In this document: one piece after another, positions 405 to 14,753 of the stretch | Layout: every line of letters begins with the position of its first letter | Position numbering within the stretch: position 1 is the first letter of the stretch | UHGV virus genome: UHGV-0120184 | Length of the DNA: 14,793 bases | Direction: 5' to 3' (one strand) | From: a virus | Program-made: the position numbers and the translations under genes | The notes under the pieces: generated by a model | Seen by the model: only the letters and a program-made list of their open reading frames with translations | What the model was told of the DNA's origin: nothing | The model's database searches: none

Positions 405-407
405 ACA

Positions 408-440: not shown

Positions 441-913
441 TAAACCGGAATGGACAGATTATTCAGGGCACCTTTGACGTTATTCGCAAGATCACCAAGC
501 GACGAGGACTGAAGACGTTCACGCAGATCTTCATCCACACGCTCAAAAGTGACAGTAAACTCAATCTTTCTTGCCCGACCATAGCGATCAAGTTCAGAGC
601 GGGTGGTGTTAAGCCCGGTAATGACATACATCCCGTAAATCTGCCCTACCCCATCAATCAGCGGCCATGGTCGCCCGACGTAAGCCTGGCTGGTCAGTGC
701 GGTCAGGGAGACTTCACCGCCCGTAATTTCCGGGTAGAGCAAACCCGAAAGCGTGATGGTATCGTCACCCGCGCCGATATACTGCCAGCTGGCTGAGCGG
801 TTGATTCGCTCGTTCTTTACATGCCTCCAGTTACGGGACTGTTGTATTTGTTGGTATGGCAGTGTGCTTAACTGAAAAACAAACATGCCGTAAATCATCA
901 TCATAACCATCAC
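440..913 (-). CDS. U: Tail protein gpU (P2 gpU family)
   Basis: The translation shows gpU-like features: a Met cluster then G.FVF.L.TLPYQ at the N-terminus, ITLSG.LYPE.TGG, and WPLIDG.G.IYGMYVI. It starts 3 nt after the tape-measure stop (916-918). The exact ATG among 898-913 is uncertain. Confidence 0.9.
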   Translation of the reverse strand: MMVMMMIYGMFVFQLSTLPYQQIQQSRNWRHVKNERINRSASWQYIGAGDDTITLSGLLYPEITGGEVSLTALTSQAYVGRPWPLIDGVGQIYGMYVITGLNTTRSELDRYGRARKIEFTVTFERVDEDLRERLQSSSLGDLANNVKGALNNLSIPV

Positions 914-915
914 TC

Positions 916-3747
916 CTAATCACGATCGCGGAAACTGTTCATACCGCCGGATTGTCTGCGAATTTCTTCCCGTACCGCCTCCCCCACCATTCTGGCAAGG
1001 TCGCGAGGGTTCTGCGTAACCACGTTGTGAAGGTGAACATGAATATCACCACCGTACACAGGCGGCGGTTCAGGAGAGCGCGAAGGCCCCCGGGGTGTCG
1101 GGGACACCGGATCCCACCGCTTAACCTCCACAGGACGGGAAGAATCCGGGGAAACCGCCGGAGACACAGGCGAAAACGCTGGCATAAGCGGAAGCCCGGG
1201 TGCAACAGTCGGTTCATTCCACTGCCCGCGAACAGCCAGCGCACGGGGGAGATTTTTAAACACGATATCGCCAGGACCGATACGCTTGCGGGCTTCCTGA
1301 AGCATACCCGACGTATTACCCTCGATACCTTTGAGCCTGCGAAGAACGCCACTGGTGCCGTCGTTTATGACAGAAGGCTTGCCACCATTATTACCTTTAT
1401 CATTGCCATCAACTGGCTTAGCGGGCGAGATAATGGCATTAACATCCCCCTGAAGCAGGGAGAGCTTGCCCTGAAGAAGCGAAGCCCGCTGTGCATCCTC
1501 CAGTTTCCGGCGCGCCCTTTCAGCTTCATCAGGCAGCACGCCAAGCTTTTCCAGTACCCAGGCAAGTCCATCCATCAGCGCCTTCAGCGGCGTAAGCGCA
1601 AGCGATATCGCCCCACTAAGTACACGACCGAAGCTTTCTCCCGCAGACGTACACCGTTCAAGAGATTCGTTGCTGGCCTGAACAGGCGTGAGTAACCGGG
1701 TAAACCAGTCAAACACCGTGGACACCGCACCCGACACCAGATCAAACAACGGCGCAAACTGAGCAATACTTTCACGAACAGGCGCAAGGCCAGCCCACAG
1801 CGACCGGAATGTGCCGAGCATGAACGCCTTAACCTGTTCCCAGTGACGCCATATGAGCAGCGCCCCACCGGCAAGAGCAGCAATCACGAGACCAACAGGA
1901 CTGAGAAGACCGGAAAGCACCCCGCCCAGCACAGAAACCGCACCGGAGACCATCCCCCACAGTGCCGGAAGGCCGGACAGGCGAAGAGCAAGACCACCAA
2001 CACCGTTTGTAAGCGAGGATAGCCCGCCACCAAGAAGCGCAGAGCCAAGCTGAAGTTTTGCAAAAATCCCCGTCAGTAACCCACCTCCGACAGACAACGC
2101 ACCAATGGCCGTTGTGGCCGCAAGCACGCCACCCACGGTAAGGGTCAGCGTGCGTACAAGCTGCGGGTTTTCCTGAACCCACGACCTGAAGCGTTCACCC
2201 ACAGAAGCAACAGCCTGTACAAGCTCGCGGATATCATCAGTAACCAGCGACACAACATCACTGCGAATACCGGAGAAAATGCCGGACAGACGATCGGTGT
2301 CGCCGCCGAGGTTGTCACGCAGAACATCCCCCATTCGCCGGGCGGTTCCCTGAACCAGCCCCATACGGTCAGATACCGTTGCAAGCGACCGGAGAAAATC
2401 CGGGATCTGGTCAACAGCCAGATCTTCAATGGGTGTGCCGAACAGCGCTATCGCCGCATTGGCCCGTTCTGCAGGATCCTGAATCTGTAACAGACCTGAC
2501 GCGGTGCGACGCATCGCTTCACGCGCGGCCGCGCCGCCACTGGCGATCGCTGACGACATTCTTTCAGCGTTAAGGCCAATCAGCTCATAGGCTTCAACGC
2601 TGGATTTGGACATATCCGAGCCGCGAATACTGAATTCTTTGACAGCATCGCCGGTTTTATCCAGGGCGAATTTCCCCTGCTGCGCCATGCTGACAAGCAG
2701 CGTCATGGTTTCAGAGCCGGATAGCCCCATATTGCGGAAATGCGTGGAATACTCATGCAGAATTTCAGGAAGTTCGCCGCGCATTTCGGCAGACATTTTC
2801 TGCATCCCTGCCGCCATCAGGTCGACGGCCTCACCTGCATTTGCGGCAAGCCCGTTTTTCAGCATAATGCCAGCAGCCTGAACCTGTTCAGCCACATTAC
2901 CGCCGGTGACCTGAGCAAGATCGATTGCCTGCCGTGTCACCCTTTCCAGTTCTTCAGTCCCTACGGTACCCAGTGCGCCAAGCGTGCTTTGCGCCGCAGC
3001 TGCTGCTTCCGAAATCATCGCGATATCCGTGGCCGCACCTGACGCACGGATGCTCTGAATCATACGGCTGTAGCGCTGGCCGTCTTCTGCGCTGCCGCCA
3101 CTCTGTGCCGCAATGAGCGCACCCTGCCGTTGCTCTTCAACAACAGGTGCAACCGCGCGACCGGCAGCATACAGACCGGCACTGCCAGCCGCCATGGCAA
3201 CAGCACCGCGCTGACTGAGCTTACCGGCAATATCCTGAACACGGTCATAGCGTTGCTGCGCCTGCGTGACGCGTGCAAGCTGGCCCCGCTGGCGTTCGAG
3301 CTGATCGTTGTATTCCTGCGTCCGCCTGATTGCCCTCTCGACCGCACGGTTACTTCCGTCCGCCCGTATACCGTGAGATTCCAGTTCGCGACTGGCTTCG
3401 CTAAGTCGGGATTTGTGGAGGGAATAAACCGTATTAAGGCGATCAATCTTCACAGTCAGCGAGCGTATAGCTTCCTGCTGTTTTTCCGTTAGTGTTGTGC
3501 CTGTACGCTGGGCCTCCTGGAGGCGCTGAAGTCGCGCACGCGCCTCGTTCAGACTGTTTTCAGTCGAGGTCACCTGCTGGCGGGCACGGGAAAACGCATC
3601 ACTGCTTCGCTGGAGTGACTTAAGAGCGTTCTGCGTGGAGGAAAGAGATTCGGAAAGCGCGCCGGTCATTTCCCGGGCGCGCCTGACGGGTTGAGTGAGA
3701 CGGTCGACCGCAGTAAGGGCTACACGTATCTGGAGATTATTACTCAT
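916..3747 (-). CDS. T: Tail tape measure protein (P2 gpT family), 943 aa from Met19 of the 961-codon ORF
   Basis: This is the longest ORF. It has a helical, Q/R/E-rich N-terminal half, Gly/Ala/Leu hydrophobic segments in the middle, and a position between E/E+E' and U. I prefer ATG 3747-3745 (MSNNLQIRV...) because the E+E' stop overlaps it as ATGAGTAA. Confidence 0.9.
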   Translation of the reverse strand: MSNNLQIRVALTAVDRLTQPVRRAREMTGALSESLSSTQNALKSLQRSSDAFSRARQQVTSTENSLNEARARLQRLQEAQRTGTTLTEKQQEAIRSLTVKIDRLNTVYSLHKSRLSEASRELESHGIRADGSNRAVERAIRRTQEYNDQLERQRGQLARVTQAQQRYDRVQDIAGKLSQRGAVAMAAGSAGLYAAGRAVAPVVEEQRQGALIAAQSGGSAEDGQRYSRMIQSIRASGAATDIAMISEAAAAAQSTLGALGTVGTEELERVTRQAIDLAQVTGGNVAEQVQAAGIMLKNGLAANAGEAVDLMAAGMQKMSAEMRGELPEILHEYSTHFRNMGLSGSETMTLLVSMAQQGKFALDKTGDAVKEFSIRGSDMSKSSVEAYELIGLNAERMSSAIASGGAAAREAMRRTASGLLQIQDPAERANAAIALFGTPIEDLAVDQIPDFLRSLATVSDRMGLVQGTARRMGDVLRDNLGGDTDRLSGIFSGIRSDVVSLVTDDIRELVQAVASVGERFRSWVQENPQLVRTLTLTVGGVLAATTAIGALSVGGGLLTGIFAKLQLGSALLGGGLSSLTNGVGGLALRLSGLPALWGMVSGAVSVLGGVLSGLLSPVGLVIAALAGGALLIWRHWEQVKAFMLGTFRSLWAGLAPVRESIAQFAPLFDLVSGAVSTVFDWFTRLLTPVQASNESLERCTSAGESFGRVLSGAISLALTPLKALMDGLAWVLEKLGVLPDEAERARRKLEDAQRASLLQGKLSLLQGDVNAIISPAKPVDGNDKGNNGGKPSVINDGTSGVLRRLKGIEGNTSGMLQEARKRIGPGDIVFKNLPRALAVRGQWNEPTVAPGLPLMPAFSPVSPAVSPDSSRPVEVKRWDPVSPTPRGPSRSPEPPPVYGGDIHVHLHNVVTQNPRDLARMVGEAVREEIRRQSGGMNSFRDRD

Positions 3748-4275
3748 CGTTATGATTCCCGGTTCTGACGGCCGCCCGTTCTCGCCAGGCAACCAGTTCA
3801 CCGGGAGTCATCACAAAGATTTCAGAGGGCGACCAGTGAAATACAACGGCTATATCAGCGACAATATCTTCAACGTAATCAAAAGCAAGAAGCGTTACGC
3901 GCCGCCCGCCTCCTGCGCCTTCTTCGCTGACGAGGGAAGCAAAAAACCGACTGCCACCTCGTACAGTTTAAAGAAGTCTTCCGGGCACATTGACATAAGT
4001 GCCGCGCGGCTGAGGTGAGGTTCAGTTACGCGTTCCAGAAAAATGGCGGCAGCATCAACATCGGTGTTGAACAGGTCCGTCATGCGGATCCCTCGAAGCG
4101 AGCCCACCTGACGCGCAAGCGCCCCAATCTTCACGCTGGAAACCGTCTTATTACCGCAGACAACAGGAACCCTGAGATTAACCGTGTCATTTGCGATCGC
4201 CTCTGCGTTTTCCGTGTCGCCATTCGTCACAGCATCTGTGTCATTCGTCACGATATTTTCTTCAGTCTGATCCAT
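3740..4275 (-). CDS. E+E': Tail assembly chaperone gpE+E', a -1 frameshift fusion product (about 178 aa: 112 zero-frame codons plus 66 codons in the -1 frame)
   Basis: After the slip at 3946-3940, the -1 frame stays open for 66 codons (..FASLVSEEGAGGGRRVTLLAFDYVEDIVADIAVVFHWSPSEIFVMTPGELVAWRERAAVRTGNHNDE). It ends at TAA 3742-3740, which overlaps the T start codon. Confidence 0.8.
3895..4275 (-). CDS. E: Tail assembly chaperone gpE (zero-frame product), 126 aa
   Basis: The ORF lies between the tube gene and the tape-measure gene. GGGAG sits 8 nt upstream of ATG 4275. The slippery heptamer lies near its 3' end, as in P2 E. Confidence 0.85.
   Translation of the reverse strand: MDQTEENIVTNDTDAVTNGDTENAEAIANDTVNLRVPVVCGNKTVSSVKIGALARQVGSLRGIRMTDLFNTDVDAAAIFLERVTEPHLSRAALMSMCPEDFFKLYEVAVGFLLPSSAKKAQEAGGA
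3940..3946 (-). promoter_or_regulatory. Programmed -1 ribosomal frameshift slippery heptamer T TTT TTG
   Basis: The minus strand reads GGT TTT TTG in the E frame (plus strand caaaaaa at 3940-3946). This is the heptamer known from the P2 E/E+E' chaperone pair. Confidence 0.8.
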
Positions 4276-4326
4276 TATTTTTCTCCCGGGGCAACAGGAC
4301 GCCGCCCCTGTTATCAGATTTAACTA

Positions 4327-4839
4327 TCAGCCAAGCCCCAGCATGGAGCGGGTGCGGTCAGGAAGAACATCCTTACCATCAATGCGCCAGATGAAGTTCA
4401 GCACGTCGATTTCAATAACATCGCTGTTATCAACGCTGAGCTTGTACCAGGTGCATTTCATCGCATAGGTATGTTCGGTATCTTCACCCTGTTTGGCCTC
4501 GCCCTTGTCGATTTCGACAATGCGACCACGGGCTTCAATATCGACGTACTCAATCCCTTCTTCGGAATAGTATTCACCCGAGAAGCGAACACGCACGGCA
4601 TCAATACCGGCGGCGTATTTGGCAAAGATGTGACGATCGACGCCACCAACCGCAAAGGAGAGATCCAGTGCACCATCATCAAGACCGAGATCCACCGACG
4701 CAGAGCCTGGCATCCCCGCCCCGCGATACGACTCTGTTTTACGGGTCAGTTTTGGCGGGGTAAAAGACGCCACCTTGCCCAGCTTGTTGTCACCGTCCAC
4801 AAAGACGGTAAACACACGAAGTTTTTTTGGTACGGCCAT
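4327..4839 (-). CDS. FII: Major tail tube protein gpFII
   Basis: A 170-aa ORF (MAVPKKLRVFTVFVDG...) with typical P2 FII size and position. Its ATG overlaps the sheath stop as TAATG at 4837-4841. Confidence 0.9.
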   Translation of the reverse strand: MAVPKKLRVFTVFVDGDNKLGKVASFTPPKLTRKTESYRGAGMPGSASVDLGLDDGALDLSFAVGGVDRHIFAKYAAGIDAVRVRFSGEYYSEEGIEYVDIEARGRIVEIDKGEAKQGEDTEHTYAMKCTWYKLSVDNSDVIEIDVLNFIWRIDGKDVLPDRTRSMLGLG

Positions 4840-6032
4840 TAGCTACCTCCAAGAGATGCAAAAGCAGAGCCAAAGAACTCGTCGGTAAACGTCTGATAGA
4901 GTTCCATACACTCCATCGGCGGAACAGGCGTGTATTTGTAGCGAATACGCACAATGCCCTGACGAAGACTGGTTGTGCCGTTGTCGATGATATCGAACCA
5001 GCACTCAGCCCCGATGAGTTTTCCGGCTGTCACCAGTGCATCCAGCTTTGCCTTGATAGCGCTCACGGCATCCTTAGCATTGGCAGGCGTAAGCGGTGAA
5101 TCCACTATCTGAAGTTGCGCCTCCGCAATGGTGTCAGCCAGTTGCTGCGCCGTACGTGTGTACACCTCAAAGATGTACTCCGCAGTTTCCGGCGTACGGT
5201 TACCCCAGAAACGGAAGGAGCCGTCGCCCTGGTGAATAAGAGTGGTCACCTCGCTATTGTTCAGCGTGTTGGCATCGCTGTTTTCATCCTGAAGTGACCA
5301 GGAAACAGACGCTGACACCCCAAGAACATTTTTCACAGGCATGTTAGAAAGGGAGCGATGCCAGCCCTGTTCATGGTCGAGTCGGGCACGAAGACCGCAC
5401 GCATACGCCGCAGCCGGGAAGGTTTCGTTTTTACCGGACACCGGGTTGAACGCAATGAAATCAGGCCACAGAAGCATGATTTCGCGACCGGAAATCTTTT
5501 TACGGAACGCAATAGCATCGGACGGTTTTGTGCAGCCAGGGCAGCCGGAATACGCAAATGCGCGCATTTTTCCGGCAACAGTCACCAGTGCAGCCGTGAC
5601 AGCATCCGATTCAAGGCCCGGAGCGGCAAGAATGCGGGGTCGGTAACCAATACCTTCCATCTGTTCGGCAACCAGAAGCGCCTGCATACCGCTGTAGCTT
5701 CCGTCTTCTTCCGTGGTACCAATGACCAGTTGATCCTGTGTTTTATTCTCAGCCCCCTCTTTTGCCGCCTCCACGCGAACGACAATCACCCGTGTACTGA
5801 CCTGGTCAGATATCGCTTTAAGGGCCTTATAAAGCGTGCCCGCTTTCCCGGCCTTCCCCAGAACAGAAGATACACGGGTAATCAGCACAGGCTTGTTAAG
5901 GGGGAACTGCCCGGTATCCGCATCATCTGCAACGGCAACAATACCAATGACGCTGGAATCAACGTCATTAATGGCCGTCACAAGGTCGGTATTCTCCGTG
6001 ACGCGCACACCGTGAAATCGTTTTTCAGCCAT
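4839..6032 (-). CDS. FI: Contractile tail sheath protein gpFI (397 aa from MAEKRFHGVRVTE)
   Basis: Strong resemblance to P2 FI: HGV.V.E near the N-terminus, FPLNKPVLIT, GW H.SLSN, TTLI...G.FRFWGNRT, YTRTAQ, and Y.YTPVPP near the C-terminus. I prefer the internal ATG 6032 over 6044, based on GGTGA upstream and alignment to the P2 N-terminus. Confidence 0.92.
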   Translation of the reverse strand: MAEKRFHGVRVTENTDLVTAINDVDSSVIGIVAVADDADTGQFPLNKPVLITRVSSVLGKAGKAGTLYKALKAISDQVSTRVIVVRVEAAKEGAENKTQDQLVIGTTEEDGSYSGMQALLVAEQMEGIGYRPRILAAPGLESDAVTAALVTVAGKMRAFAYSGCPGCTKPSDAIAFRKKISGREIMLLWPDFIAFNPVSGKNETFPAAAYACGLRARLDHEQGWHRSLSNMPVKNVLGVSASVSWSLQDENSDANTLNNSEVTTLIHQGDGSFRFWGNRTPETAEYIFEVYTRTAQQLADTIAEAQLQIVDSPLTPANAKDAVSAIKAKLDALVTAGKLIGAECWFDIIDNGTTSLRQGIVRIRYKYTPVPPMECMELYQTFTDEFFGSAFASLGGS

Positions 6033-6084
6033 ACGATTCACCATCAGTTGTGTTTATGCTCGCCTGAATAATCCACCATTGGCG

Positions 6085-6125
6085 CACAGCCCTCACCTGA
6101 TGCGGGCTGTGGGGATTTTTTTACA
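6085..6125. promoter_or_regulatory. Divergent late-promoter region: a TGT-N12-ACA dyad (6108-6125) overlapping a GC-rich hairpin plus T7 run
   Basis: TGT(6108-6110)-ggggattttttt-ACA(6123-6125) matches the dyad reported for Ogr-dependent P2 late promoters. It sits between the divergent FI (start 6032) and D (start 6186) genes. The same DNA forms the stem CACAGCCC (6085-6092) / GGGCTGTG (6104-6111), followed by ggga and TTTTTTT (6116-6122). Confidence 0.4.
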
Positions 6126-6185
6126 ACAGAGCCGGACAGAAACGACAAGGTACGCGTGGGATGATACGCACACGGGAGGGATATC

Positions 6186-7331
6186 ATGAGCATCACTGAA
6201 TCAGTAACACATCACATCAACAGCGCACTGGATGCAGCGGAAGATACCGTTAGGGTGCCAGACTTCACTATCACACTGGAAGGGAAAGATGCCAGCCTGA
6301 AGAACATCACGCAGCGCATCATGAGCCTGACCATGACAGACAACAGGGGTTTTGAGGCTGACAGGGTGACACTGGAAATCGACGACGCCGACGGCGGGGT
6401 GGTACTTCCGGAGCGCGGAACACGATTATCGCTGGCGATGGGATGGAAAGGTGAAAGCCTCACTCGCAAGGGGGCGTTTGTGGTGGACGAAGTGAGCCAC
6501 GAAGGTCCGCCGGATAAGCTGACCATATCCGCGAACAGTGCGGATTTTCGCGAAGAGTTTAACGTGAAACGCGAAGTCTCCTGGCATGACGTGACCGTTG
6601 AGCGTGTGGTATCTGCCATCGCGCACCGTTACGGACTGAAAGCACAAATCAGCGAAATGCTGATGAATATCGAAATCGACCATGCAGACCAGACAGAGGA
6701 AAGCGACATCTCGTTCCTCACGCGTATGGCTGACATGCTGGGTGCAATAACCACCGTAAAAAACGGGTGCCTGCTGTTCATTCTGCCGGGTGGCGGTGTG
6801 ACAGCCAGCGGGCGCGCCCTCCCCTCATTCGCCCTGACCCGCTCGGATGGCGACAGTCATCGCTTTCGCATTGCTGACAGAAAAGCCTATACCGGAGTGA
6901 AAGCTTACTGGCTGGATTTAAAGTTCGGCCAGAAGAAGGCCGTGAACGTGAAAAAGCGAAACGCGAAAACCACACAGAAGCCGGAGAAAAGCAGTTCACG
7001 GGAGGGTGGATACATGGAAGGCGCAGAAGGCAATGTGTATGTGCTGAGAAAAACCTACCCGAACGAAGAAGCCGCGCGTCGCGCAGCTGCCGCACGCTGG
7101 CAGCAACTTCAGCGGGGTGCAGCAGAATTCAGCATCACGCTGGCGCGCGGACGCGCCGACCTGTATCCGGAGATGCACGGCACGGTATCCGGGTTCAAGA
7201 GCGACATTGACAATCAGGACTGGATTATTTCGCGCATTGAGCACGTCATCGACGACAGCGGCTTCACCACCAGACTGGAGCTGGAAGCAAAAATCGCAGA
7301 CTGGATAGCAGAGCGCGCCACGACTGGCTAG
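6186..7331 (+). CDS. D: Phage late control/tail protein gpD
   Basis: A 381-aa ORF with GGGAGGG upstream. It contains the P2 gpD motifs LTMTDNRGFEAD, GWKG, F.VDEV.H.G.PD...I.A.SADF, SWHD, VTASG, ITRSDGD.H.F.IADR.AYTGV.A.W, QRG.AEFSI.LA.GRAD.Y and SGFK..ID.QDW.I..V.H...SGFTT.LELE. Confidence 0.93.
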   Translation: MSITESVTHHINSALDAAEDTVRVPDFTITLEGKDASLKNITQRIMSLTMTDNRGFEADRVTLEIDDADGGVVLPERGTRLSLAMGWKGESLTRKGAFVVDEVSHEGPPDKLTISANSADFREEFNVKREVSWHDVTVERVVSAIAHRYGLKAQISEMLMNIEIDHADQTEESDISFLTRMADMLGAITTVKNGCLLFILPGGGVTASGRALPSFALTRSDGDSHRFRIADRKAYTGVKAYWLDLKFGQKKAVNVKKRNAKTTQKPEKSSSREGGYMEGAEGNVYVLRKTYPNEEAARRAAAARWQQLQRGAAEFSITLARGRADLYPEMHGTVSGFKSDIDNQDWIISRIEHVIDDSGFTTRLELEAKIADWIAERATTG

Positions 7332-7372
7332 AATGAGCGCGAGCCCACCCCGTTTCAGCCAGGGGGACCATC

Positions 7373-7675
7373 ATGCATCCTTGCCCATACTGCGGAGCAA
7401 GTACCCGCACCAGAACAAGCCGCGACGCCAACGATACAGGAACAATCAGGGAGAAATATTACCAGTGCAACAACATTGAATGCAGCGCCACCTTTGTGAC
7501 GCACGAGTTTGTCGTGAGAACCGTATGCCGTCCGCAACCCACCGAAGAACGGGGAGTCGTCCCCGCAGACGCTTTCAAATCATGCCACCGGGGAAGGGAT
7601 CAACTCAGCCTCCCCCTGGGCGATTGCGCCTCCCAGTCAAAAACTGTACATTACGCGCGGGTGCCTTTCGGCTGA
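7373..7675 (+). CDS. ogr: Ogr/Delta-type zinc-finger late transcription activator, with a C-terminal extension relative to the ~72-aa P2 Ogr
   Basis: MHPCPYCG...(22 residues)...CNNIECSATF reproduces the CxxC-N22-CxxxxC Ogr finger (P2: CPLCQ...CQNVNCSATF). GGGGGA lies upstream of the ATG. The gene follows gpD directly, as in P2. Confidence 0.88.
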   Translation: MHPCPYCGASTRTRTSRDANDTGTIREKYYQCNNIECSATFVTHEFVVRTVCRPQPTEERGVVPADAFKSCHRGRDQLSLPLGDCASQSKTVHYARVPFG

Positions 7676-7805
7676 CGGCTGGAAGGATTACCTGAAGGCC
7701 GGATGTGGAAAGGCCCCGGAAAACATCTCTGTTTAGCCGAGGCCCTAATCTACATATCTTTAGCAAGTAGAAGGTTAGCGCCTCTTTGAAAAAGGAGCAA
7801 GCGCT

Positions 7806-7946
7806 ATGCCGCAAAAAACGATCATCGTGAGCATTTTATGCTTAACCATGTTGTTGACCGTCTGGATGATACATCGTTCACCATGTGAATTCAGACTTAA
7901 CATCATGTGGTCAGAATTTGCGGCGTTCTTGCAGTGTAAACCGTAA
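7806..7946 (+). CDS. Hok/Gef/PndA-family type I toxin-like small membrane peptide (46 aa), below the ORF-track length threshold
   Basis: The translation is MPQKTIIVSILCLTMLLTVWMIHRSPCEFRLNIMWSEFAAFLQCKP. AGGAG lies 8 nt upstream. It has an N-terminal TM helix followed by S.CE.R and ..AAF. Compare PndA (MPQRT...VWMVRDSLCGLRL) and Hok ([21 protein letters not shown]), both recalled from memory. Confidence 0.7.
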   Translation: MPQKTIIVSILCLTMLLTVWMIHRSPCEFRLNIMWSEFAAFLQCKP

Positions 7947-8041
7947 GAAACCGCAGCGGGGGTGAAAGCCCCCGCTATCCGGTTGCCGAAGGTTCGGTCG
8001 AAAGCCGCACCCGTGCATGCAAGTGACAAAGAAAAAACAAA

Positions 8042-8071
8042 GCCCGCAGCGTAAAAACTGCGGGCTTTTTT
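8042..8071 (+). terminator. Rho-independent terminator closing the hok-like transcription unit
   Basis: Stem GCCCGCAG (8042-8049) / CTGCGGGC (8058-8065) with an 8-nt loop, followed by TTTTTT (8066-8071). The A-rich run upstream (8031-8041) could let it work on the minus strand too. Confidence 0.75.
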
Positions 8072-8112
8072 ATTCACATACCGAAGGTGTGGTAACTGCC
8101 TGGGTTCAGACC

Positions 8113-8136
8113 AAAAAAAGCCCCATAAAATGGGGC
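8113..8136 (-). terminator. Rho-independent terminator on the minus strand
   Basis: Stem GCCCCA (8120-8125) / TGGGGC (8131-8136) with a 5-nt loop. On the minus strand it is followed by TTTTTTT (complement of the A-run 8113-8119). It lies about 300 nt downstream of the minus-strand AT-rich operon. Confidence 0.55.
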
Positions 8137-8432
8137 TGAAGATTCTGTAAGGAATTTCACAGCAATGAGATTCTAGTCTCTTCCAATGATATATGAGTCT
8201 TCAGCCTGAATCAATGGGGCATGACTGTGAATCCACCGACGATCAAAACTTGCACAATGCCTGAAGTTGAGTTAGAAAAGTACCGGGCGCGATATCCGGT
8301 TTATTTTTTGTTGCTGTGTTTTGCCTCGTGCCGGATATCGCGTCCACCGTTTTTCTGATGATTCTTATGAAATCGTACTTTATTGATTTACTGCCATCCT
8401 GGTTTGTCTTTTTATGTTCATTATTGCGACAG

Positions 8433-8828
8433 TCATTTCCTGTTTCTGGTGATGTTTTGATAAAAGTGAAAGAATAAAACGATCATTGCAGAAGGTATTG
8501 CTAAAACCATACATATCATTATATAAACAAGATGAAAATGATATATACCATAAGACCAGAAAAAAGGTTTTTTCCAGAATGATATGGATGTGTATTTTAG
8601 TGTAATTGTTTTTGTCAGGTATATTGAACAAGGAAGAGCCAGGCCACTGAGTATCAGAAATAAGTCAACTTTTATCGATGCTTCTGTTGGTGTGTCATAT
8701 ATAAGATGCAATATGGATATTATAATGGGGCACATTCCCCACAGGATATTTTTGAAATAGAATTTCCGGTTCATATGTTTATGCTCTTTGGTTTTATCCC
8801 GGGAATTGGCGCTTTGTTTTTTATTCAT
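8433..8828 (-). CDS. Small integral membrane protein (131 aa, about 4 predicted TM segments), function unknown
   Basis: Hydrophobic segments include ILWGMCPIIISILHLIY, LFLILSGLALPCSIYL, FFWSYGIYHFHLVYIMICMVLAI and PSAMIVLFFHF. Its ATG (8828-8826) overlaps the upstream stop as ATGAATAA. Composition is very AT-rich. Confidence 0.6.
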   Translation of the reverse strand: MNKKQSANSRDKTKEHKHMNRKFYFKNILWGMCPIIISILHLIYDTPTEASIKVDLFLILSGLALPCSIYLTKTITLKYTSISFWKKPFFWSYGIYHFHLVYIMICMVLAIPSAMIVLFFHFYQNITRNRK

Positions 8829-9492
8829 GAACGTTTTCGTTGTTTAATAACCATGGGGTATTATGATTATCCTTTATTTTTGATATGTAATTGTCAATAG
8901 TGGATTTCGTTTCATTATTGTGGTTATAGTAATCATGAAGAGTGCAAAACACATCATCTTTTATTGTGGCGATTAATGGGGCTTGTGTGAGGGTAAAATA
9001 TAAAGAACGATTACTTAGTGTCCTGAAATAAATTTTTTCGCCAATGACCAGATCGGTGTTCATTATATTGTAGCCTATTTCAAATATATTGTTTGATGGC
9101 ATGTGTAATACATATGTGGGGTATTTGTTGTGTTTTTTCATTAAATAATAAATAAAATCAGATACAGGCATCTGTTTTAGTTTTTTTTGCATCTTCCTTA
9201 TGTGTTGTGACATTAATATCATTTTCGAGAGAATGCATAAGAGACTAAACAAGAGATTAAATACTATGTTCAGTACTATCAGAGTAACAAACAGGCCAAT
9301 GCTCCTTAGCGCTGAAAATATATTGTCATTGTAAATATACTGGAATGTATATCCGGCTGATAAAAATGCCAATATATATAACACTATGTCTGTTTTATTT
9401 CGCTTTTTTATTTTGTAGGTTATTGCTGATTTTAAGAATAAGATGGCAATAAGAGCAGTGATAACCCAGAAAAATATAACGGAAACTTCCAT
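8821..9492 (-). CDS. Membrane-anchored protein (223 aa: three N-terminal TM segments plus a soluble C-terminal domain of about 125 aa), function unknown
   Basis: The TM segments are VIFFWVITALIAILFL, IVLYILAFLSAGYTF and LFVTLIVLNIVFNLLFSLLCIL. An N/K/Y-rich domain follows. AAAGG lies 7 nt upstream of ATG 9492. This is the first gene of the two-gene operon. Confidence 0.6.
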   Translation of the reverse strand: MEVSVIFFWVITALIAILFLKSAITYKIKKRNKTDIVLYILAFLSAGYTFQYIYNDNIFSALRSIGLFVTLIVLNIVFNLLFSLLCILSKMILMSQHIRKMQKKLKQMPVSDFIYYLMKKHNKYPTYVLHMPSNNIFEIGYNIMNTDLVIGEKIYFRTLSNRSLYFTLTQAPLIATIKDDVFCTLHDYYNHNNETKSTIDNYISKIKDNHNTPWLLNNENVHE

Positions 9493-9542
9493 AATTATAC
9501 CTTTATCGTGTTTTCAGGGAGGTAATTTATCATTGTGCTGAT

Positions 9543-9562
9543 ATGCATGTAAATACATGCAT
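9543..9562. promoter_or_regulatory. Perfect 20-bp palindrome ATGCATGTAAATACATGCAT in the leader of the AT-rich operon (operator or 5'-UTR hairpin candidate)
   Basis: Two 9-bp arms ATGCATGTA / TACATGCAT separated by 2 nt. The palindrome begins 51 bp upstream of ATG 9492. Confidence 0.4.
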
Positions 9563-9694
9563 TATCTGTTTCTTATATTCTTTTTATGAAGTTACTGATT
9601 AATTTATATTAAAACAACACATTCATAATGAAATCAACATGTTCATATGGTTGACGGCAGATTTCTCTTTTTGTTAACCTGCATCTGCATTAAC

Positions 9695-9939
9695 TGTCGC
9701 TTCGGCGACCACCAATGTTCCATAGTGGCCTGTGAGGAACGCCTTCGGGTGGCCCATGTCGCTCCGGCGACCACCAATGCTCCATATGACCTGTGAGGAG
9801 CGCCTTCGGGTGGTCAGTTTTACACCTCCGTAGCCTGAAAGGAGCTGTGAGTACTGAAGGGAAACATCCCTGATGTATGGGCAAATCTGCACACCTTTGA
9901 GAGCAGATGTCACTACGGTTTTACGTGATGATGAAGGCA
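9695..9939. repeat. Direct repeat copy A (245 nt) containing tandem units 9696-9757 (62 nt) and 9758-9817 (60 nt)
   Basis: It aligns base-for-base with 12489-12733 and differs by 3 T/C transitions (9702, 9878, 9914). The shared motif taac lies just upstream of both copies. Confidence 0.95.
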
Positions 9940-9941
9940 TT

Positions 9942-9971
9942 CCGGATTCCGTTCCGGTACTTTTATTTTTT
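9942..9971 (+). terminator. Small rho-independent terminator immediately 3' of repeat copy A
   Basis: Stem CCGGA (9942-9946) / TCCGG (9953-9957) with a 6-nt loop, then tac and TTTTATTTTTT (9961-9971). The stem is short, so confidence is modest. Confidence 0.45.
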
Positions 9972-10117
9972 CTCAGCAGACAGGCATAAAAACGCCTTTA
10001 AAATCTGCGTCTTAAGATATTTTCTGACTTTCCGCATGAGCTTCTTATGACTGTGCGCACGGCATAAGACCATTTGAAATTTGGTCGCTTGCGTGTGCAT
10101 GTGGAGTTTGAAGCTGT

Positions 10118-10163
10118 GCGGCGTCACTTGCGTGCGACCGAAGGGAACACCAAGTGACGCCGC
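10118..10163. other. 13-bp perfect inverted repeat (long hairpin) in the 743-nt untranslated region upstream of the recombinase gene
   Basis: GCGGCGTCACTTG (10118-10130) / CAAGTGACGCCGC (10151-10163) with a 20-nt loop. A second composite hairpin lies at 10285-10320. Confidence 0.6.
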
Positions 10164-10682
10164 GGCCATCTGCCCTGAAGGCAGCATCACGTAAGGTCTG
10201 GCAGAAAATCGTCGCTCGTGACAAGCGTCCTGATGCTCGTTTTGTCGCTCTGACAACGTCTTTCGGTGACGTATCCACGCCTTTCCGGCGCGTCCGTTTT
10301 CACACGGACGGCCACGCCGGAATGTCTTCTTAAACTTCGTAATACATGAGAGGTAAGTGTATTAACTGACTGAAATAAAGGAATAAAAATGAAAAATCGT
10401 TCTGATGTCGGGAGGCGTCATCGTAAGGTGACGGGGAGTATTCCTCAACAATCGCCCTGGTGCACAGGTAGCGAACTCCTGTAAGAACTCAACATGTGCA
10501 AGCTCTGCTACATCGACATCAAACGAGCCAGGAAGGCGAACAACCGCGTTACAGAGCCGTCCGTGATGACGAAAAACTAACAATATCAACGAACTTTTCT
10601 GTTTACCGGAAGGGCTGCGTATGCAGTTTTACTTTGTGAACGGAAGGGGGCTGCATCTGATTTTTACAGGGAGAATGACTTT

Positions 10683-11600
10683 ATGGCCCGGAAATCGTCA
10701 CGTTCTAAAGTTGAACTGTTTCGCAAGTCTTTCATCTCACTTGCCCGTGAGTGTGGTGGCAGTTACGCAACAACAGCTGACAGAATGAGAATTGCAAAGT
10801 ACTTCCTGAATTATTTACGTGAAAATGGAATTAAACTTCGCCAGACGAGCAGTATTAAAACCAGACATATTTCTGGTTACCTTCTCAGCAGGAAAGCAGC
10901 GGGTATTTCTCACCGGACTATTCAGAATGAACGGGCGGTTATGCGTGCCATTTTAGAAAAAGATGGACGACTTAAAATCGCAGATCCTTCTAACCCATTA
11001 TTGAGTAATGAAGCGCTCGGCCTAAAGGATACATGCCGTGATGGAAAGAAAATAGCATTGTCACCGGATGAATTCTGGAAAGCATTTGCTAAAGTGGAAA
11101 AAAAGAATCCTGGTGTGGCAGCTGCAATGCAGCTTTCTTATGTTCTGGGTTTAAGAACAAAAGAAGCCGTTCAGTCATGTAAGTCTGTTCAGTCATGGCT
11201 ACGGGAACTGAATTCAGGGTGCGATTCTCTTTCGGTCGTTTTTGGTACGAAAGGTGGAAGACCAAGAAATACCACAATTATTGACAGAGATGCGGTAAGA
11301 CATGCTTTGCTTTATGCTCAAAAAATAATGGATGAACACGACGGAAAACTTATTGACCGTCCAAATATAAAACAGGCTATCAATGTTTTTCGTTATCATG
11401 CCCGTAAAGCGGGATTGTCAGGAGTGAAATCTCCGCACAGTATGCGTTATCATTTTTCTCAGGAAGCCAGAAAATTTTATCGAAAAAATGGATATGGAGA
11501 GTCGGAAATCTACGCTCGTGTTTCTATGGATCTTGGCCATGGTGACGGAAGAGGTCGTTATGTAAAACAGGTTTATTTTAACGGTTCTGATGAAAGTTGA
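10683..11600 (+). CDS. Tyrosine recombinase / integrase-like protein (305 aa) with a SAM-like N-terminal domain
   Basis: The full catalytic signature is readable: R in YVLGLRTKEA, K in FGTKGGRPR, H-x-x-R in HSMRYHF, H in LGHGDGRG, and candidate nucleophile Tyr in GRYVKQVY. It resembles the proteobacterial family annotated as integrase domain-containing protein (from memory, not searched). Confidence 0.8.
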   Translation: MARKSSRSKVELFRKSFISLARECGGSYATTADRMRIAKYFLNYLRENGIKLRQTSSIKTRHISGYLLSRKAAGISHRTIQNERAVMRAILEKDGRLKIADPSNPLLSNEALGLKDTCRDGKKIALSPDEFWKAFAKVEKKNPGVAAAMQLSYVLGLRTKEAVQSCKSVQSWLRELNSGCDSLSVVFGTKGGRPRNTTIIDRDAVRHALLYAQKIMDEHDGKLIDRPNIKQAINVFRYHARKAGLSGVKSPHSMRYHFSQEARKFYRKNGYGESEIYARVSMDLGHGDGRGRYVKQVYFNGSDES

Positions 11601-11603
11601 TAT

Positions 11604-12341
11604 TTAAAATGAATCTGGAGGATATGTGTTTTTGTTAATTTCGGTTATGATGATTTCTGATGCGCGATTACACATATCTTCATCAAAATACCCAATATGA
11701 CATTCATGAATGTGACAATTCAGTTTTCTGGATAGCCATATATTTGCCTCGTTACGGGATATGTTGGCTCTTTGCTGATAATTGTCAAAAAGTTTACGTA
11801 CTTTTGTTCTGAGTATTCTCAGGTTTTCTTTAGCCGGAGTACCTAATGGTCTTCCTGAGTTTTTATGGCATCCAACCCATGCATTGCATGGGGGACAAAT
11901 CCAGTAATATTTGTTTTCTGTCGCGGCTGAAATGGAAAATGGCATGAGAGCCCCTTTTATAAGATTCGTCTTATTTCCACAGTATGGGCAGATAACAATT
12001 GGTCGGACATCTGCAATATTCAGTGATGTATAAGTCAGTCGTTCATTTTTAACGATGTTTCTCTTTCCGCAATGGGTGAGAACATGCTTTATTGTATCTA
12101 ATTCTTCTCGTAGTATTTTGGAACTGACGCCAGTGCGATAACGTTGTTGAAAATAGCATTCAATATGACGTAGTTTTATGCTATTTGCTGAGCTTATCTG
12201 TATATTGGCATCTTTAAGAAATGAAGCAAGTCTTCTGGCTCTTCCCGTATATACCAACATATCTTCTGGCGTCGGGGCGCATGCTTTGGCTATTCTGAGT
12301 AGTTCATCTTTTAATTTTTTGTATTTCGATTTCATTTTCAC
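11604..12341 (-). CDS. Recombinase N-domain paralogue fused to a Cys4 zinc ribbon (245 aa); no catalytic domain
   Basis: Its N-terminal part aligns with the N-terminal part of the 305-aa protein: NSIKLRHIECYF vs SSIKTRHISGYL, and GVSSKILREELDTIKHVL vs GISHRTIQNERAVMRAIL. The C-terminal half has CPYCG..(29 residues)..CPPCNAWVGCH, then RPLGTPA..LR..R. This resembles the zinc-ribbon family I recall as DUF3268 (needs an HMM check). Confidence 0.7.
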   Translation of the reverse strand: MKMKSKYKKLKDELLRIAKACAPTPEDMLVYTGRARRLASFLKDANIQISSANSIKLRHIECYFQQRYRTGVSSKILREELDTIKHVLTHCGKRNIVKNERLTYTSLNIADVRPIVICPYCGNKTNLIKGALMPFSISAATENKYYWICPPCNAWVGCHKNSGRPLGTPAKENLRILRTKVRKLFDNYQQRANISRNEANIWLSRKLNCHIHECHIGYFDEDMCNRASEIIITEINKNTYPPDSF

Positions 12342-12488
12342 ATCTCTCTTACAGGTTCATAAAGAGTGTTACTGAATTAAAAAATATCAAATTGAGCTGG
12401 CCTTGTCAGTCAGCTGTAGGTTATTACCATAGCCACGACAACAACTTGAAGTTTTATGTTGTTTATGATTATATTTTAGACGCTAACT

Positions 12489-12733
12489 TGTCGCTCCGGC
12501 GACCACCAATGTTCCATAGTGGCCTGTGAGGAACGCCTTCGGGTGGCCCATGTCGCTCCGGCGACCACCAATGCTCCATATGACCTGTGAGGAGCGCCTT
12601 CGGGTGGTCAGTTTTACACCTCCGTAGCCTGAAAGGAGCTGTGAGTACTGAAGGGAAACATCCCTGATGTACGGGCAAATCTGCACACCTTTGAGAGCAG
12701 ATGTCACCACGGTTTTACGTGATGATGAAGGCA
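12489..12733. repeat. Direct repeat copy B (245 nt) containing tandem units 12490-12551 and 12552-12611
   Basis: Same orientation as copy A, with 242 of 245 positions identical by manual alignment. Confidence 0.95.
12489..12733 (+). ncRNA. Candidate structured ncRNA or leader, copy B
   Basis: Same structure as copy A. There is a sigma70-like TTGAAG (12446-12451), an 18-nt spacer, then TATATT (12470-12475). This predicts a start within a few nt of the repeat's 5' boundary. No terminator follows this copy. Confidence 0.4.
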
Positions 12734-12866
12734 CTTTGTATACAATGTGACTATGAGTTGTCTCTGGTCTTCTTAAGCGCATCGTGCTGACGCATTGATG
12801 TGTTCACCTGACGGATTTTCCAGTCCGTCAGGGCGGAACGTCCGTCTTTTTCATTCGGAGGTTCCG

Positions 12867-13268
12867 ATGTTTATACCACTTTTGTTACGTGCAGATATGC
12901 GCATAACGCCTTTCTTTCATCTTCTCAGACAATGTCTGTTTAATCAGAAGCGTTGTGTTCACCCACAACAGCCCTGGTCCGCTCCACAACTGAGGCATCT
13001 GTACTGCACTCCGTGGTTTATTAACGCCACCGGCAATCTGTCAGTCAGAGCCTGCATTGTTTCCACCAACGGTGCATTGCGACACTGCTTTGAGTTCCGT
13101 GAAGGCTCTCACAGCCGTGAATATCGTTACTGGTTTGAGGCACTTCCGCTGTCTGTCGTGCGGTTTAATGTCTTTACCGGTCGAATATCTGCTCGCCGCA
13201 CGCTTTCTGCTGCCTCCCGTATGGCCGTGCAGCTTACTTCTTTTCGCTATCGCTTCGGTCTTCGCTGA
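12867..13268 (+). CDS. Hypothetical basic, Cys/Trp/Arg-rich protein (133 aa from the internal Met); coding status doubtful
   Basis: GGAGG lies 5 nt upstream of ATG 12867. A hairpin (13278-13296) follows the stop. The composition is odd and the region is hairpin-rich, so it may be non-coding. Confidence 0.3.
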   Translation: MFIPLLLRADMRITPFFHLLRQCLFNQKRCVHPQQPWSAPQLRHLYCTPWFINATGNLSVRACIVSTNGALRHCFEFREGSHSREYRYWFEALPLSVVRFNVFTGRISARRTLSAASRMAVQLTSFRYRFGLR

Positions 13269-13379
13269 AGCCTGTTGAACGGTCGTCATGACCGTTGAAA
13301 GGTTTATCACACAACGCCCGGATCTGTCTGACCGTACCACGCGTGCGCGATGACAAATCTGAGTTTTCCTTAACCCGTC

Positions 13380-13417
13380 CGGGACCGCTCCCGTTCGGGG
13401 ACGGTCCCGCTGTTTTT
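13380..13417 (+). terminator. Strong GC hairpin plus T5 run immediately upstream of the next gene's RBS (terminator or attenuator)
   Basis: CGGGACCG (13380-13387) / CGGTCCCG (13402-13409), with an inner UCCC-GUUC-GGGG helix. It is followed by ctgTTTTTa. AGGAG at 13421-13425 and ATG 13433 follow. Confidence 0.55.
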
Positions 13418-13432
13418 ATCAGGAGATTGTTT

Positions 13433-13813
13433 ATGGGACTCGATATTTTTTTCCTTGGGCGTGATCGTGTTACCGACGCGGTAGTATCGGTACCGGAAAC
13501 GCGGGAAGTGGGTTACTTTCGCAAGGTTAACCCACTGATTGCCTGGTTTGAGACGCATTGTGGACCGGTTGAAAATGCCGTGGAGCGTCCGGTTTCCAGA
13601 ACGGAACTGGAGGCACTACTGAGCGATCTTGAATGCCTTACGCCGGAGAACTGCCGGGAATTCTTCCCCACAACAGAAGGATTCTTTTTTGGTTCTCAGG
13701 AGTATGACCAGTATTACTGGAAGGATGTTGAGATCGTGAAATCGTGGGTCAGAAGCACGCTTGATTCGTTTGATTTTGAACGAAAAATACTGTTGCTCTG
13801 GGCATGGTGGTAA
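13433..13813 (+). CDS. Hypothetical protein (126 aa, MGLDIFFLGRD...LLLWAWW)
   Basis: I chose the internal Met of the 13295..13813 ORF because AGGAG lies 7 nt upstream and the upstream part is occupied by the hairpin/terminator. A terminator follows. A remnant paralogue of its C-terminus lies at 14434-14508. Confidence 0.65.
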   Translation: MGLDIFFLGRDRVTDAVVSVPETREVGYFRKVNPLIAWFETHCGPVENAVERPVSRTELEALLSDLECLTPENCREFFPTTEGFFFGSQEYDQYYWKDVEIVKSWVRSTLDSFDFERKILLLWAWW

Positions 13814-13851
13814 TTATTTTTCTGTCCTTGTTTTTAACCTTATTACCCTGT

Positions 13852-13896
13852 CGGGAACATGTGTCCCGTAGGGCAGGTGTGTTCCCGTAATTTTTT
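13852..13896 (+). terminator. Rho-independent terminator after the 126-aa gene
   Basis: CGGGAACA (13852-13859) / TGTTCCCG (13880-13887) followed by taaTTTTTT (13888-13896). An alternative inner pairing uses TGTCCCG. Confidence 0.55.
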
Positions 13897-13913
13897 GTAT
13901 CTGAGGTGAACAC

Positions 13914-14393
13914 ATGAATAGTCTGTTAATACTCCTTTACGTTGTTGTATGCCGTGCCTGCACCATTCTTCGGGTAATCGCACCAGTGTCGTCTGTCCGT
14001 GCGTGGTGTGAGTATCAACTGGAAGGTATGACGATACTTCGTGATGCGTACAGCTCGCTGGCTAAGGCGGCTGGAATGCAGAATGATGCATTTGAATATC
14101 TTGAAAGTATTGCTCGTCATCTGGGCTACGAAAGCGGTGGTGACCAACTGAAATCAGGACTTTTCCGGCCGTTTCTGTGGCATATACGTGCGAAAGGCCA
14201 CAGGCTGGGAGCTGTCATGGAAATGGCGGTATGGCAGGCATGGAAGAATGGCTGTAACGATGTCTGCAATCCATGGGAGGATGTCTACAATCCATGGGAC
14301 CGTGGATGGAACGATGGCTGGACTGAATGTCTGGATCAACGTATAGCCGGTCTCCTGAAGGCGGTCTGTATTGACTTTTCCGACGCCGACTGA
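13914..14393 (+). CDS. Hypothetical protein (159 aa) with a hydrophobic N-terminus and a W/N/P-rich C-terminal segment (CNPWEDVYNPWDRGWNDGW)
   Basis: GAGGTG lies 5 nt upstream of ATG 13914. I recognise no family. Confidence 0.5.
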   Translation: MNSLLILLYVVVCRACTILRVIAPVSSVRAWCEYQLEGMTILRDAYSSLAKAAGMQNDAFEYLESIARHLGYESGGDQLKSGLFRPFLWHIRAKGHRLGAVMEMAVWQAWKNGCNDVCNPWEDVYNPWDRGWNDGWTECLDQRIAGLLKAVCIDFSDAD

Positions 14394-14433
14394 ACGGTTT
14401 TTCTTTTACTTACTGTACCGTGTACCTGCGTCG

Positions 14434-14508
14434 GTGGCGTGGGTCAGCGATACGCTGAAGACGTTTGATTTTGAGCGTCATTCACTGGTGATGCTGGCGT
14501 TGTGGTAA
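14434..14508 (+). pseudogene. Remnant of a paralogue of the 13433..13813 gene (C-terminal ~24 codons only)
   Basis: The translation VAWVSDTLKTFDFERHSLVMLALW* matches VKSWVRSTLDSFDFERKILLLWAWW* at the end of the 126-aa protein. The frame is open only from 14359 and has no start codon. Confidence 0.55.
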
Positions 14509-14600
14509 GTCCGGCCAGTCTGATTTTCGTTATTAATTTAACCGTATGGTGCATGTTCACCGTACGGGGAGCATGCATCTTTTTTATGGAGCGTGCTCTT

Positions 14601-14753
14601 ATGAAAACGAAAAAACATACTTCATGTCCCGTGAACAAAACCCCGGAGCGTGACCTGTATCAGCTGGTGACGGACAGGGTGATTGAGGCCATCGAAAAGG
14701 GCGTAGCCCCCTGGCAACGTCCATGGCGCTCAGTACGGTGTCAGCGCCAGTGA
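14601..14753 (+). pseudogene. ArdC-like (DUF1738-type) anti-restriction/ssDNA-binding protein, N-terminal ~50 codons only; truncated
   Basis: MKTKKHTSCPVNKTPERDLYQLVTDRVIEAIEKGVAPWQRPW matches the hallmark DLYQ.VT..II..LE.G..PW..PW N-terminus. A stop occurs at 14751-14753, whereas full-length proteins are about 300 aa. No frame continues to the window edge. Confidence 0.5.

Follow-up and report, generated by a model that had tools for sequence, protein, structure and literature searches.

The UHGV virus genome UHGV-0120184 contains, within the 14,793-nt stretch that was analysed and is called the window here, 2 near-identical 245-nt sequences in the same orientation on either side of a gene for a tyrosine-recombinase-like protein (int below). 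The question that this locus raises is whether the repeats are the ends of a mobile recombinase cassette, or elements that each serve the genes they precede. The original prediction had offered three readings, namely (a) an integrative element sitting inside a structured-RNA gene, (b) a cassette excising by recombination between the repeats, and (c) a reusable regulatory element placed before different cargo, and it had found the pairing of repeat and recombinase unlike anything described. Both repeats are STAXI RNA elements, already catalogued in Rfam, and the locus is a further instance of the known arrangement of STAXI, EFASI, and "integrase". The idea of a recombinase cassette that lies between copies of an RNA gene and excises itself does not hold. 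What is new is a proposed, testable link between STAXI and EFASI, the PF12835 "integrases" of SPI-7-type islands, and the tyrosine-recombinase-like relaxases that have an origin of transfer (oriT) upstream, three subjects treated apart until now. Taking the locus as a whole, we consider it rather probable that it consists of STAXI copies of an SPI-7-type MPF_G integrative and conjugative element, together with a MOB_M-type relaxase and its oriT/RNA block.

Identity of the direct repeats

A repeat search of the window returns a single outstanding direct-repeat family, with one 245-nt copy at 9695-9939 and the other at 12489-12733, a start-to-start spacing of 2794 nt. Aligned to each other, copy 1 and copy 2 have mismatches at repeat positions 8, 184, and 220, all of them T>C, and the ends are sharp in that identity extends 0 bases beyond either side. 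The predicted pair of near-identical 245-nt direct repeats differing by 3 transitions is thus borne out by repeat search and alignment, and the G+C counts given with it (38/62 for the first unit and 20/60 for 10801-10860) are exact; overall, G+C is 54% in the repeat and 42% in the enclosed DNA. A 99% match over 245 nt within 14.8 kb cannot be of chance origin.

9695..9939, + strand: STAXI copy 1 (Rfam RF01728), two 62-nt hairpin-plus-pseudoknot units and a third stem-loop
12489..12733, + strand: STAXI copy 2 (Rfam RF01728), 99% identical to copy 1, heading an operon of small open reading frames (ORFs) that runs into ardC

The Rfam model RF01728 (STAXI) matches copy 1 at 9695-9868 with 78.2 bits and copy 2 at 12489-12662 with 75.5 bits, the curated gathering score being 40.5 bits, and both copies span model positions 1-153 of 153. 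A covariance model of our own, built from 16 STAXI copies, scores copy 1 at 113.5 bits. The Rfam model is about 70 nt shorter than the 245-nt unit found here; the 3' extension of copy 1 carries a hairpin ATCTGC...GCAGAT at 9885-9908, and this extra hairpin, absent from the Rfam model, is also in Xenorhabdus copies. The name STAXI was taken from the neighbors of the motif, Ssbp, Topoisomerase, Antirestriction, and XerDC Integrase (PMC2864571), and MPF_G islands have been reported to have many STAXI copies (PMC5587801).

Window positions 7639-14738 are DNA of a conjugative island (99.8%), and in the 144 kb around this island in E. coli strain JE86-ST05 our covariance model finds exactly three STAXI copies, all on the same strand. 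The third is at 42335-42508 of locus L087 (NZ_AP022815.1), between topB and STY4534-ssb with no recombinase nearby, and it is a near-identical 245-nt block having the same ends as the 2 window copies. In one island, then, one STAXI copy precedes int, another precedes the ardC operon, and the third separates topB from ssb, so that the neighborhood of ssb, topoisomerase, and anti-restriction genes is the same in the described motif and in this island.

Promoters, folded strand, and probable leader role

We take the repeats to be reusable promoter-proximal 5' leaders, not attachment (att) sites. The features that bear on this are a predicted promoter before each window copy and, after copy 2, a terminator-like hairpin.

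9651..9680, + strand: sigma-70-type promoter of STAXI copy 1, -35 TTGACG at 9651-9656, 18-nt spacer, -10 TAACCT at 9675-9680
12446..12475, + strand: sigma-70-type promoter of STAXI copy 2, TTGAAG, 18-nt spacer, TATATT, by consensus scan
12830..12857, + strand: terminator-like hairpin with a T-run, 3' of STAXI copy 2 and ahead of the first ORF, by consensus scan and sequence check

The gap from promoter to STAXI is about 14 nt, and in many genera TTGAC(G/A) is found about 43 nt and TAnnnT about 20 nt before STAXI copies, with a spacer of 17 or 18, so transcription is predicted as likely to start about 8 nt before STAXI. A promoter held at a fixed distance explains why the homology always starts exactly at the 5' end of STAXI. 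Following the terminator-like hairpin at 12830-12857, there is a ribosome-binding site GGAGG and then an ATG at 12867. Three gene sets are headed by STAXI in this way: the first in the order STAXI, hairpin, EFASI, and PF12835 gene, the second in the order STAXI, small ORFs, and ardC, and the third as STAXI and STY4534-ssb. With a promoter for each copy and three gene sets, reading (c), a reusable element before different cargo, is supported and is the best of the three. An integron or attC-like interpretation was considered and dropped, there being a promoter on every copy, tetraloops of the RNA type, and no sign, at the ends of the repeats, that cassettes turn over.

The strand on which STAXI folds was judged by pair types in 116 distinct STAXI copies, using hand-defined stems with both pseudoknots included. 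Stems and both pseudoknots covary across these sequences, as at pair 31-58 (CG35/GC33/AT29) and at the pseudoknot pair 24-43 (AT44/TA28/CG27). The well-aligned helices have 171 G.U pairs versus 24 A.C pairs along with abundant compensatory changes, and because G.U pairs outnumber A.C in this way we place the structure on the strand of the downstream genes. Choosing the strand by asymmetry of minimum free energy gave p=0.08 for STAXI. With EFASI it leaned to the minus strand, on which the additional helix falls within an invariant stretch and has one compensatory change only.

In the STAXI alignment UUCG-type tetraloops predominate, and UUCG tetraloops stabilize RNA, not DNA (PMC2864571). STAXI and EFASI RNAs have been detected in another E. 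coli strain by reverse transcription quantitative PCR (PMC12370729). The sense-strand fold, the tetraloops, and that detection together favor an RNA leader.

Whether the repeats bound a cassette

Readings (a) and (b) have in common a recombinase cassette, which either inserted in the STAXI gene and duplicated it, or excises between the copies. Near-identical direct repeats with sharp ends are what such a cassette would leave behind, and the expected counterpart is an empty site in which a single copy joins the 2 flanks. A synthetic empty site made by joining 9295-9939 to 12734-13400 is covered to at least 80% by 0 of 20,395 records from 5,426 complete E. coli genomes, so the single-copy site that had been expected in relatives was found in none of those genomes. 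The identical-ended third copy elsewhere in the island also goes against a cassette, as do the separate promoters and downstream operons of the copies. These are the observations that had been named in advance as speaking against the cassette, that is, the repeat with no recombinase nearby and the lack of a single-copy junction.

Confirmed matches to the recombinase number 313, and all are from Enterobacterales except one short contig of a metagenome-assembled genome labelled Oliverpabstia (L004); 80 of the loci, taken from species-representative genomes, were fetched for comparison. Around 80 loci exhibit the same order on the int strand, with STAXI 530-950 nt and EFASI 100-300 nt upstream of int; the genera include Escherichia, Salmonella, Klebsiella, Serratia, Erwinia, Yersinia, Edwardsiella, Cedecea, and Xenorhabdus. 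An upstream STAXI is found in 61 of the 76 loci with enough flank and a downstream STAXI within 2.5 kb in 36 of 72. That a second copy lies so close in half of the loci only is a point against the cassette; on its side, the next STAXI begins 60-111 nt past the int stop codon in 17 loci.

The flanking pairs themselves, in 39 related loci, are 38-99% identical with a median of 68%, where unrelated STAXI copies have a background median of 53%. The window pair is the extreme of this distribution, and just two other lineages are over 95%. A cassette is hard to reconcile with a median of 68% and a minimum of 38%. Because flanking-copy identity in relatives spans this whole range, the near-identity of the window copies is lineage-specific local homogenization, not att duplication.

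Also favorable to a cassette are the Xenorhabdus genomes, in which a STAXI-EFASI-int unit of about 1.75 kb recurs in 3-5 copies each; the copies are 82-93% identical, and some pairs have flanks that are unrelated. Several of these units lie within larger duplicated, decayed islands, and that context along with the degree of divergence speaks the other way; the units are old paralogs, not recent insertions. Some of the Xenorhabdus loci, those from Xenorhabdus hominickii (L012, L014, L015, and L050) and others, are beside nonribosomal peptide synthetase clusters, autotransporters, or remnants of traG, as if each genome held many decayed islands.

Islands that target tRNA or tmRNA genes are the known system that this locus resembles, in having structured-RNA direct repeats on both sides of a same-strand tyrosine-recombinase gene. 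They differ in that here there is no empty site, there are more than 2 copies which diverge freely, and the copies are promoter-driven and head their own operons. They also differ in where the true integrase and att site are. The JE86-ST05 island is SPI-7-type and MPF_G, runs about 81 kb from parA to tRNA-Phe, and has its integrase at the tRNA-Phe end together with a MOBH TraI-type nickase/helicase, 38 kb from the STAXI-int module. Against readings (a) and (b) alike stand this separate integrase, the lack of a single-copy junction in the genomes searched, the third STAXI without a recombinase, the divergent flanking copies, and an enclosed zinc-finger gene that is confined to the E. coli lineage. 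The cassette is largely refuted, and we give it very little credence in either form.

The non-coding block upstream of int

The repeats had been said to flank exactly two genes. That count leaves out an EFASI RNA and a conserved hairpin at 10118-10163, which the interval also holds, both located in the non-coding block between STAXI copy 1 and int.

9942..9971, + strand: terminator-like hairpin CCGGATTCCGTTCCGG with a T-run, directly 3' of STAXI copy 1, by consensus scan and sequence check
10118..10163, no strand assigned: inverted-repeat hairpin GCGGCGTCACTTG, 20-nt loop, CAAGTGACGCCGC, a candidate oriT core
10397..10525, + strand: EFASI RNA (Rfam RF02957, 72.3 bits), 157 nt upstream of the ATG of int

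EFASI starts 458 nt past the 245-nt repeat. The gathering score of RF02957 is 51.2 bits, and the match covers model positions 1-133 of 133, so that both STAXI and EFASI are full-model matches above curated thresholds in this locus. EFASI stands for "Enterobacteriaceae, Frequently Around STAXI and Integrases" in the Rfam text quoted in PMC12370729, which places it several hundred bp past STAXI and before integrase genes, with unknown function. The Rfam order of STAXI, EFASI, and integrase is exactly the order seen here, and the pairing that had seemed unlike anything described is therefore named in an existing entry. EFASI is found upstream of nearly all the int homologs fetched, and its stems covary. 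No paper was found in the searchable literature that links STAXI and EFASI to relaxase or oriT modules. An octamer AACTCAAC in the single-stranded part of EFASI (window 10470-10490) is invariant in 14 sequences including distant genera, and could be a binding or base-pairing site.

The hairpin at 10118-10163 has inner arms GTCACTTG/CAAGTGAC that are invariant in 12 genera, with outer pairs that covary, and a variant of the hairpin has the compensatory change CACTTT/AAAGTG. In 88 of 96 loci the int module has a single such core, always 400-560 nt upstream of the gene, and in these 96 loci it never adjoins other STAXI copies. We suggest it as the candidate core of an origin of transfer. No other non-coding feature of the module is as conserved as the core GTCACTT[G/T]-N20-[C/A]AAGTGAC, whose loop has a mini-hairpin, GCGAAGC, CCGAAGG, or ACGAAGT, that itself covaries.

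The terminator-like hairpin at 9942-9971 is not conserved beyond the E. coli lineage, and a function may be suggested for it by analogy with the terminator-like repeat that follows the P5 promoter of Salmonella genomic island 1 (SGI1) (PMC9299015). As for coding capacity, RefSeq annotates a 59-aa ORF between STAXI and EFASI, and no ORF conserved across genera was found there.

The block without the gene

Three small E. coli plasmids have a STAXI-hairpin-EFASI (or EFASI-like) block without int, spanning from the 5' end of STAXI to just before the position of the int start codon. These plasmids are little beyond a replication gene and the block.

L086, NZ_CP059920.1, 3140 bp: Rep_1 rolling-circle type and block
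L085, NZ_CP100506.1, 5319 bp: replication protein and block
L084, NZ_CP172132.1, 4394 bp: Rep3 and block

A related case is the tellurite/adherence island (TAI) of O157:H7 (L002), whose similarity to the window near the module is confined to the upstream flank, STAXI, and the hairpin, after which it has a terminator. In E. coli strain TUM9803, a chromosomal island has an int 43% identical to that of the window and preceded by a variant block; going only by adjacent accession numbers, TUM9803 also appears to carry 2 of the small block plasmids. The variant block (L098 4639-5550 in TUM9803, L002 9389-9930, and L084) has four STAXI units, the CACTTT/AAAGTG hairpin arms, and an EFASI-like element at 46-49 bits, just under the Rfam threshold, and is the version found in the O157 TAI island and pGF43-E. 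A recombination crossover in the hairpin loop had been entertained on account of an apparent recurrent breakpoint at about 10133 in the plasmids and TAI, and was rejected when the alignment turned out to be of a diverged module variant having its own hairpin and terminator.

Another proposal is that STAXI, the hairpin, and EFASI act as folded single-stranded DNA, being priming or single-strand-promoter signals, like Frpo/ssi in F-like plasmids or the single-strand origin (sso) in rolling-circle plasmids, that serve to convert transferred DNA to duplex. Weinberg et al. raised the possibility of single-stranded DNA for STAXI (PMC2864571). STAXI stands near ssb, topB, and anti-restriction genes, and the block is on a Rep_1 rolling-circle plasmid, which needs an sso. 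The GCGAAGC-type mini-hairpin in the hairpin loop also suits this proposal, such mini-hairpins being very stable in DNA. Set against these are the dominance in STAXI of UUCG tetraloops, which stabilize RNA rather than DNA, the conserved promoter directly upstream, which argues for transcription, and the folding strand, which is the gene-sense strand. On the Rep_1 plasmid, moreover, the block is opposite to rep, and the displaced strand is probably the non-folding complement. We think this use of the block improbable. A pC194-type nick motif CTTGATA was searched for in the Rep_1 plasmid and not found.

The enclosed genes and the relaxase candidate

10683..11600, + strand: 305-aa tyrosine-recombinase-fold protein (int), N-terminal PF12834 and PF12835 Integrase_1, candidate MpsA-type (MOB_M) relaxase
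11604..12341, - strand: 245-aa zinc-finger protein, PF12834 (E=9.2e-12) and DUF3268 (E=5.3e-27) by Pfam

The 305-aa protein matches PF12835 with E=3.6e-53 over profile positions 1-149 of 149, and its residues 15-100 match PF12834 (Phage_int_SAM_2) with E=1.1e-23. R158, K190, H252, R255, H286, Y293, and Y298 are invariant in 12 homologs of 53-68% identity, with catalytic roles assigned by motif position, not structure. By its catalytic residues, tyrosine, and N-terminal domain of the core-binding type, the protein qualifies in sequence as a member of the tyrosine recombinase superfamily. No sequence match was found to any solved structure. The zinc-finger gene is convergent with int. It had originally been described as a non-catalytic paralog; only PF12834 is common to both proteins, and the C-terminal half is DUF3268 and no degenerate form of a catalytic domain. 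Of 84 sequences compared (the window plus 83 loci), three have that C-terminal domain, namely the window, L001, and L003, and the 245-aa protein is possibly a lineage-specific accessory DNA-binding partner.

The main point of interest is the possible link of the two orphan RNA motifs to relaxase modules of the tyrosine-recombinase type. PF12835 is described as the "INT_DTR_like" signature for MpsA of SGI1, an atypical relaxase of the tyrosine-recombinase family, and others like it (PMC10484663); we take this link from that paper. According to a 2026 preprint (10.64898/2026.01.13.699239), MOB_M relaxases are the commonest chromosomal relaxases in its focal species, are often annotated as integrases, are near a true integrase, and have a specific association with MPF_G islands, with the oriT lying between the mating-pore operon and the relaxase gene. 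These statements fit the present locus, in which int follows traG and cargo and the true integrase is elsewhere; MOB_M/MPF_G islands and this one are alike in having an integrase-annotated gene between the mating-pore operon and establishment genes, and a separate integrase. In the same preprint, the TAI of O157:H7 is called oriT-only and its oriT is said to resemble the experimentally localized oriT of SGI-4; what L002 has in common with the window near the module is, as above, the upstream flank, STAXI, and the hairpin. The STAXI and EFASI motifs are not mentioned in its accessible part. The 305-aa protein is, from these resemblances of sequence and setting, probably a DNA-transfer enzyme and not the integrase of the island.

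SGI1 is close in layout. Its mobilization region has, in order, a sigma-70 promoter, a terminator-like repeat some 66 nt past it, an oriT that is G+C-rich and contains inverted repeats, a small RNA, mpsA, and mpsB (PMC6414798, PMC9299015). The window matches this in order and scale with its promoter, STAXI, terminator-like hairpin, inverted repeat, EFASI, PF12835 gene, and PF12834 neighbor. Both have a structured RNA of about 130-280 nt just before a gene of the tyrosine-recombinase fold, and in both a second protein is like the N-terminal DNA-binding domain of integrases; MpsA and the 305-aa protein have PF12835 as common signature, according to the literature. The likeness is one of layout and not a sequence comparison of the RNAs, oriT, and proteins. 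The small RNA of SGI1, sgm-sRNA, is essential and trans-acting and derives from the 3' part of a primary transcript of 650-700 nt (PMC9299015). MpsB resembles the core-binding domain of integrases (PMC6414798), and the 245-aa protein may be compared with it by analogy only. The systems also differ. In SGI1, mpsB follows mpsA on one transcript, whereas the zinc-finger gene here is convergent with int and confined to one lineage. A core-binding domain is reported to be lacking in MpsA and is present in the 305-aa protein. SGI1 is mobilizable and depends on IncC plasmids, whereas the module here is in a self-transmissible island with a MOBH TraI.

In the mechanism we propose, the 305-aa "recombinase" would be an MpsA-type (MOB_M) tyrosine-recombinase-like relaxase, and the non-coding block of about 1 kb before its gene would be its cis and RNA apparatus. 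A primary transcript led by STAXI would run through the inverted repeat, as oriT core, and through EFASI, which would be an RNA cofactor comparable with sgm-sRNA of SGI1. For the block-only small plasmids and the TAI of O157, mobilization would be in trans, and the ssb and anti-restriction operons would come under common regulation because the other STAXI copies give them the same leader. The fuller version, in which a MOB_M module widespread in Enterobacterales has STAXI and EFASI as its RNA components, the transcript is processed to EFASI as an essential trans-acting relaxosome cofactor at the hairpin, and block-only elements are mobilized by the island enzyme, we put forward tentatively, as a possibility that may well turn out otherwise.

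Several points weigh against a relaxase. As a true recombinase would, the 305-aa protein has the whole catalytic set and a SAM-like domain at its N-terminus, and MpsA, MobK, and TcpM are described as having no core-binding domain (PMC8152469). TcpM of pCW3 has no detectable similarity to its family (hhalign probability 0.45%) and matches PF00589, not PF12835; characterized members of MOB_M are reported to be mutually dissimilar (PMC8152469). The island already encodes a MOBH-type TraI. Finally, STAXI copies 2 and 3 have no hairpin or EFASI, and for them a leader role is suggested by position and promoter.

The complete catalytic set, with a core-binding-like domain and a catalytic domain, would also suit a multimer resolvase, a true site-specific recombinase acting at the inverted repeat on the excised island as it replicates in plasmid-like fashion. 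The small plasmids would then borrow the site as ColE1 does cer for XerCD, and STAXI and EFASI would regulate expression only. Such a resolvase gains from the presence of one invariant 13-bp-arm inverted repeat per module, from the dnaB, parA/parB, and replication genes that the island also carries, and from the gene-less block, which is found not only on a rolling-circle plasmid but also on ones that have other replication proteins. Tyrosine-recombinase core sites have spacers of 6-8 bp, and the 20-nt spacer between the arms far exceeds that known spacing. The covariation of the outer stem and the compensatory change in the inner stem indicate a folded single strand, not a duplex binding site, and the published class of PF12835 and of the regions upstream of int is relaxase and oriT. 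We regard the resolvase as unlikely, and prefer the relaxase with an upstream oriT/RNA block.

If a relaxase with its oriT and RNA is what the module encodes, a function would be assigned to two orphan RNA families, and the single known case of conjugative DNA processing that requires an RNA, that of SGI1, would be extended to many islands across Escherichia, Salmonella, Klebsiella, Serratia, Yersinia, and Xenorhabdus. It would also explain a possible mobilization route of small plasmids and of the O157 tellurite/adherence island.

Setting of the module and composition of the window

To the left of the module are traG, which is the last mating-pore gene, cargo, rpmE, and hok, and to the right are small ORFs, ardC, and genes for LPD29 and DUF1281 proteins. 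The window as a whole is composite E. coli DNA, with 1-8074 being the tail region of a P2-like prophage (99.6%), and the prophage and island parts overlap only in a 436-nt hok/sok stretch. The junction between them is in 0 of 5,426 complete E. coli genomes, and a phage collection gave no match. The last 55 nt of the window depart from the island homology inside ardC and bring in a stop codon. The composite is either the product of recombination at the common hok/sok locus or an assembly chimera.

Some smaller features were noted in passing. The stretch common to prophage and island contains an ORF for a toxin of the Hok/Gef family (46 aa, window 7806-7946). A 21-nt tandem duplication, GATGTCT[G/A]CAATCCATGGGA x2, is at 14259-14299 inside ORF 13914-14393. 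A 71-nt repeat of 70% identity, at 13743-13813 and 14438-14508, makes up the 3' ends of 2 small ORFs of the operon that follows STAXI, which suggests that the operon encodes paralogous small proteins.

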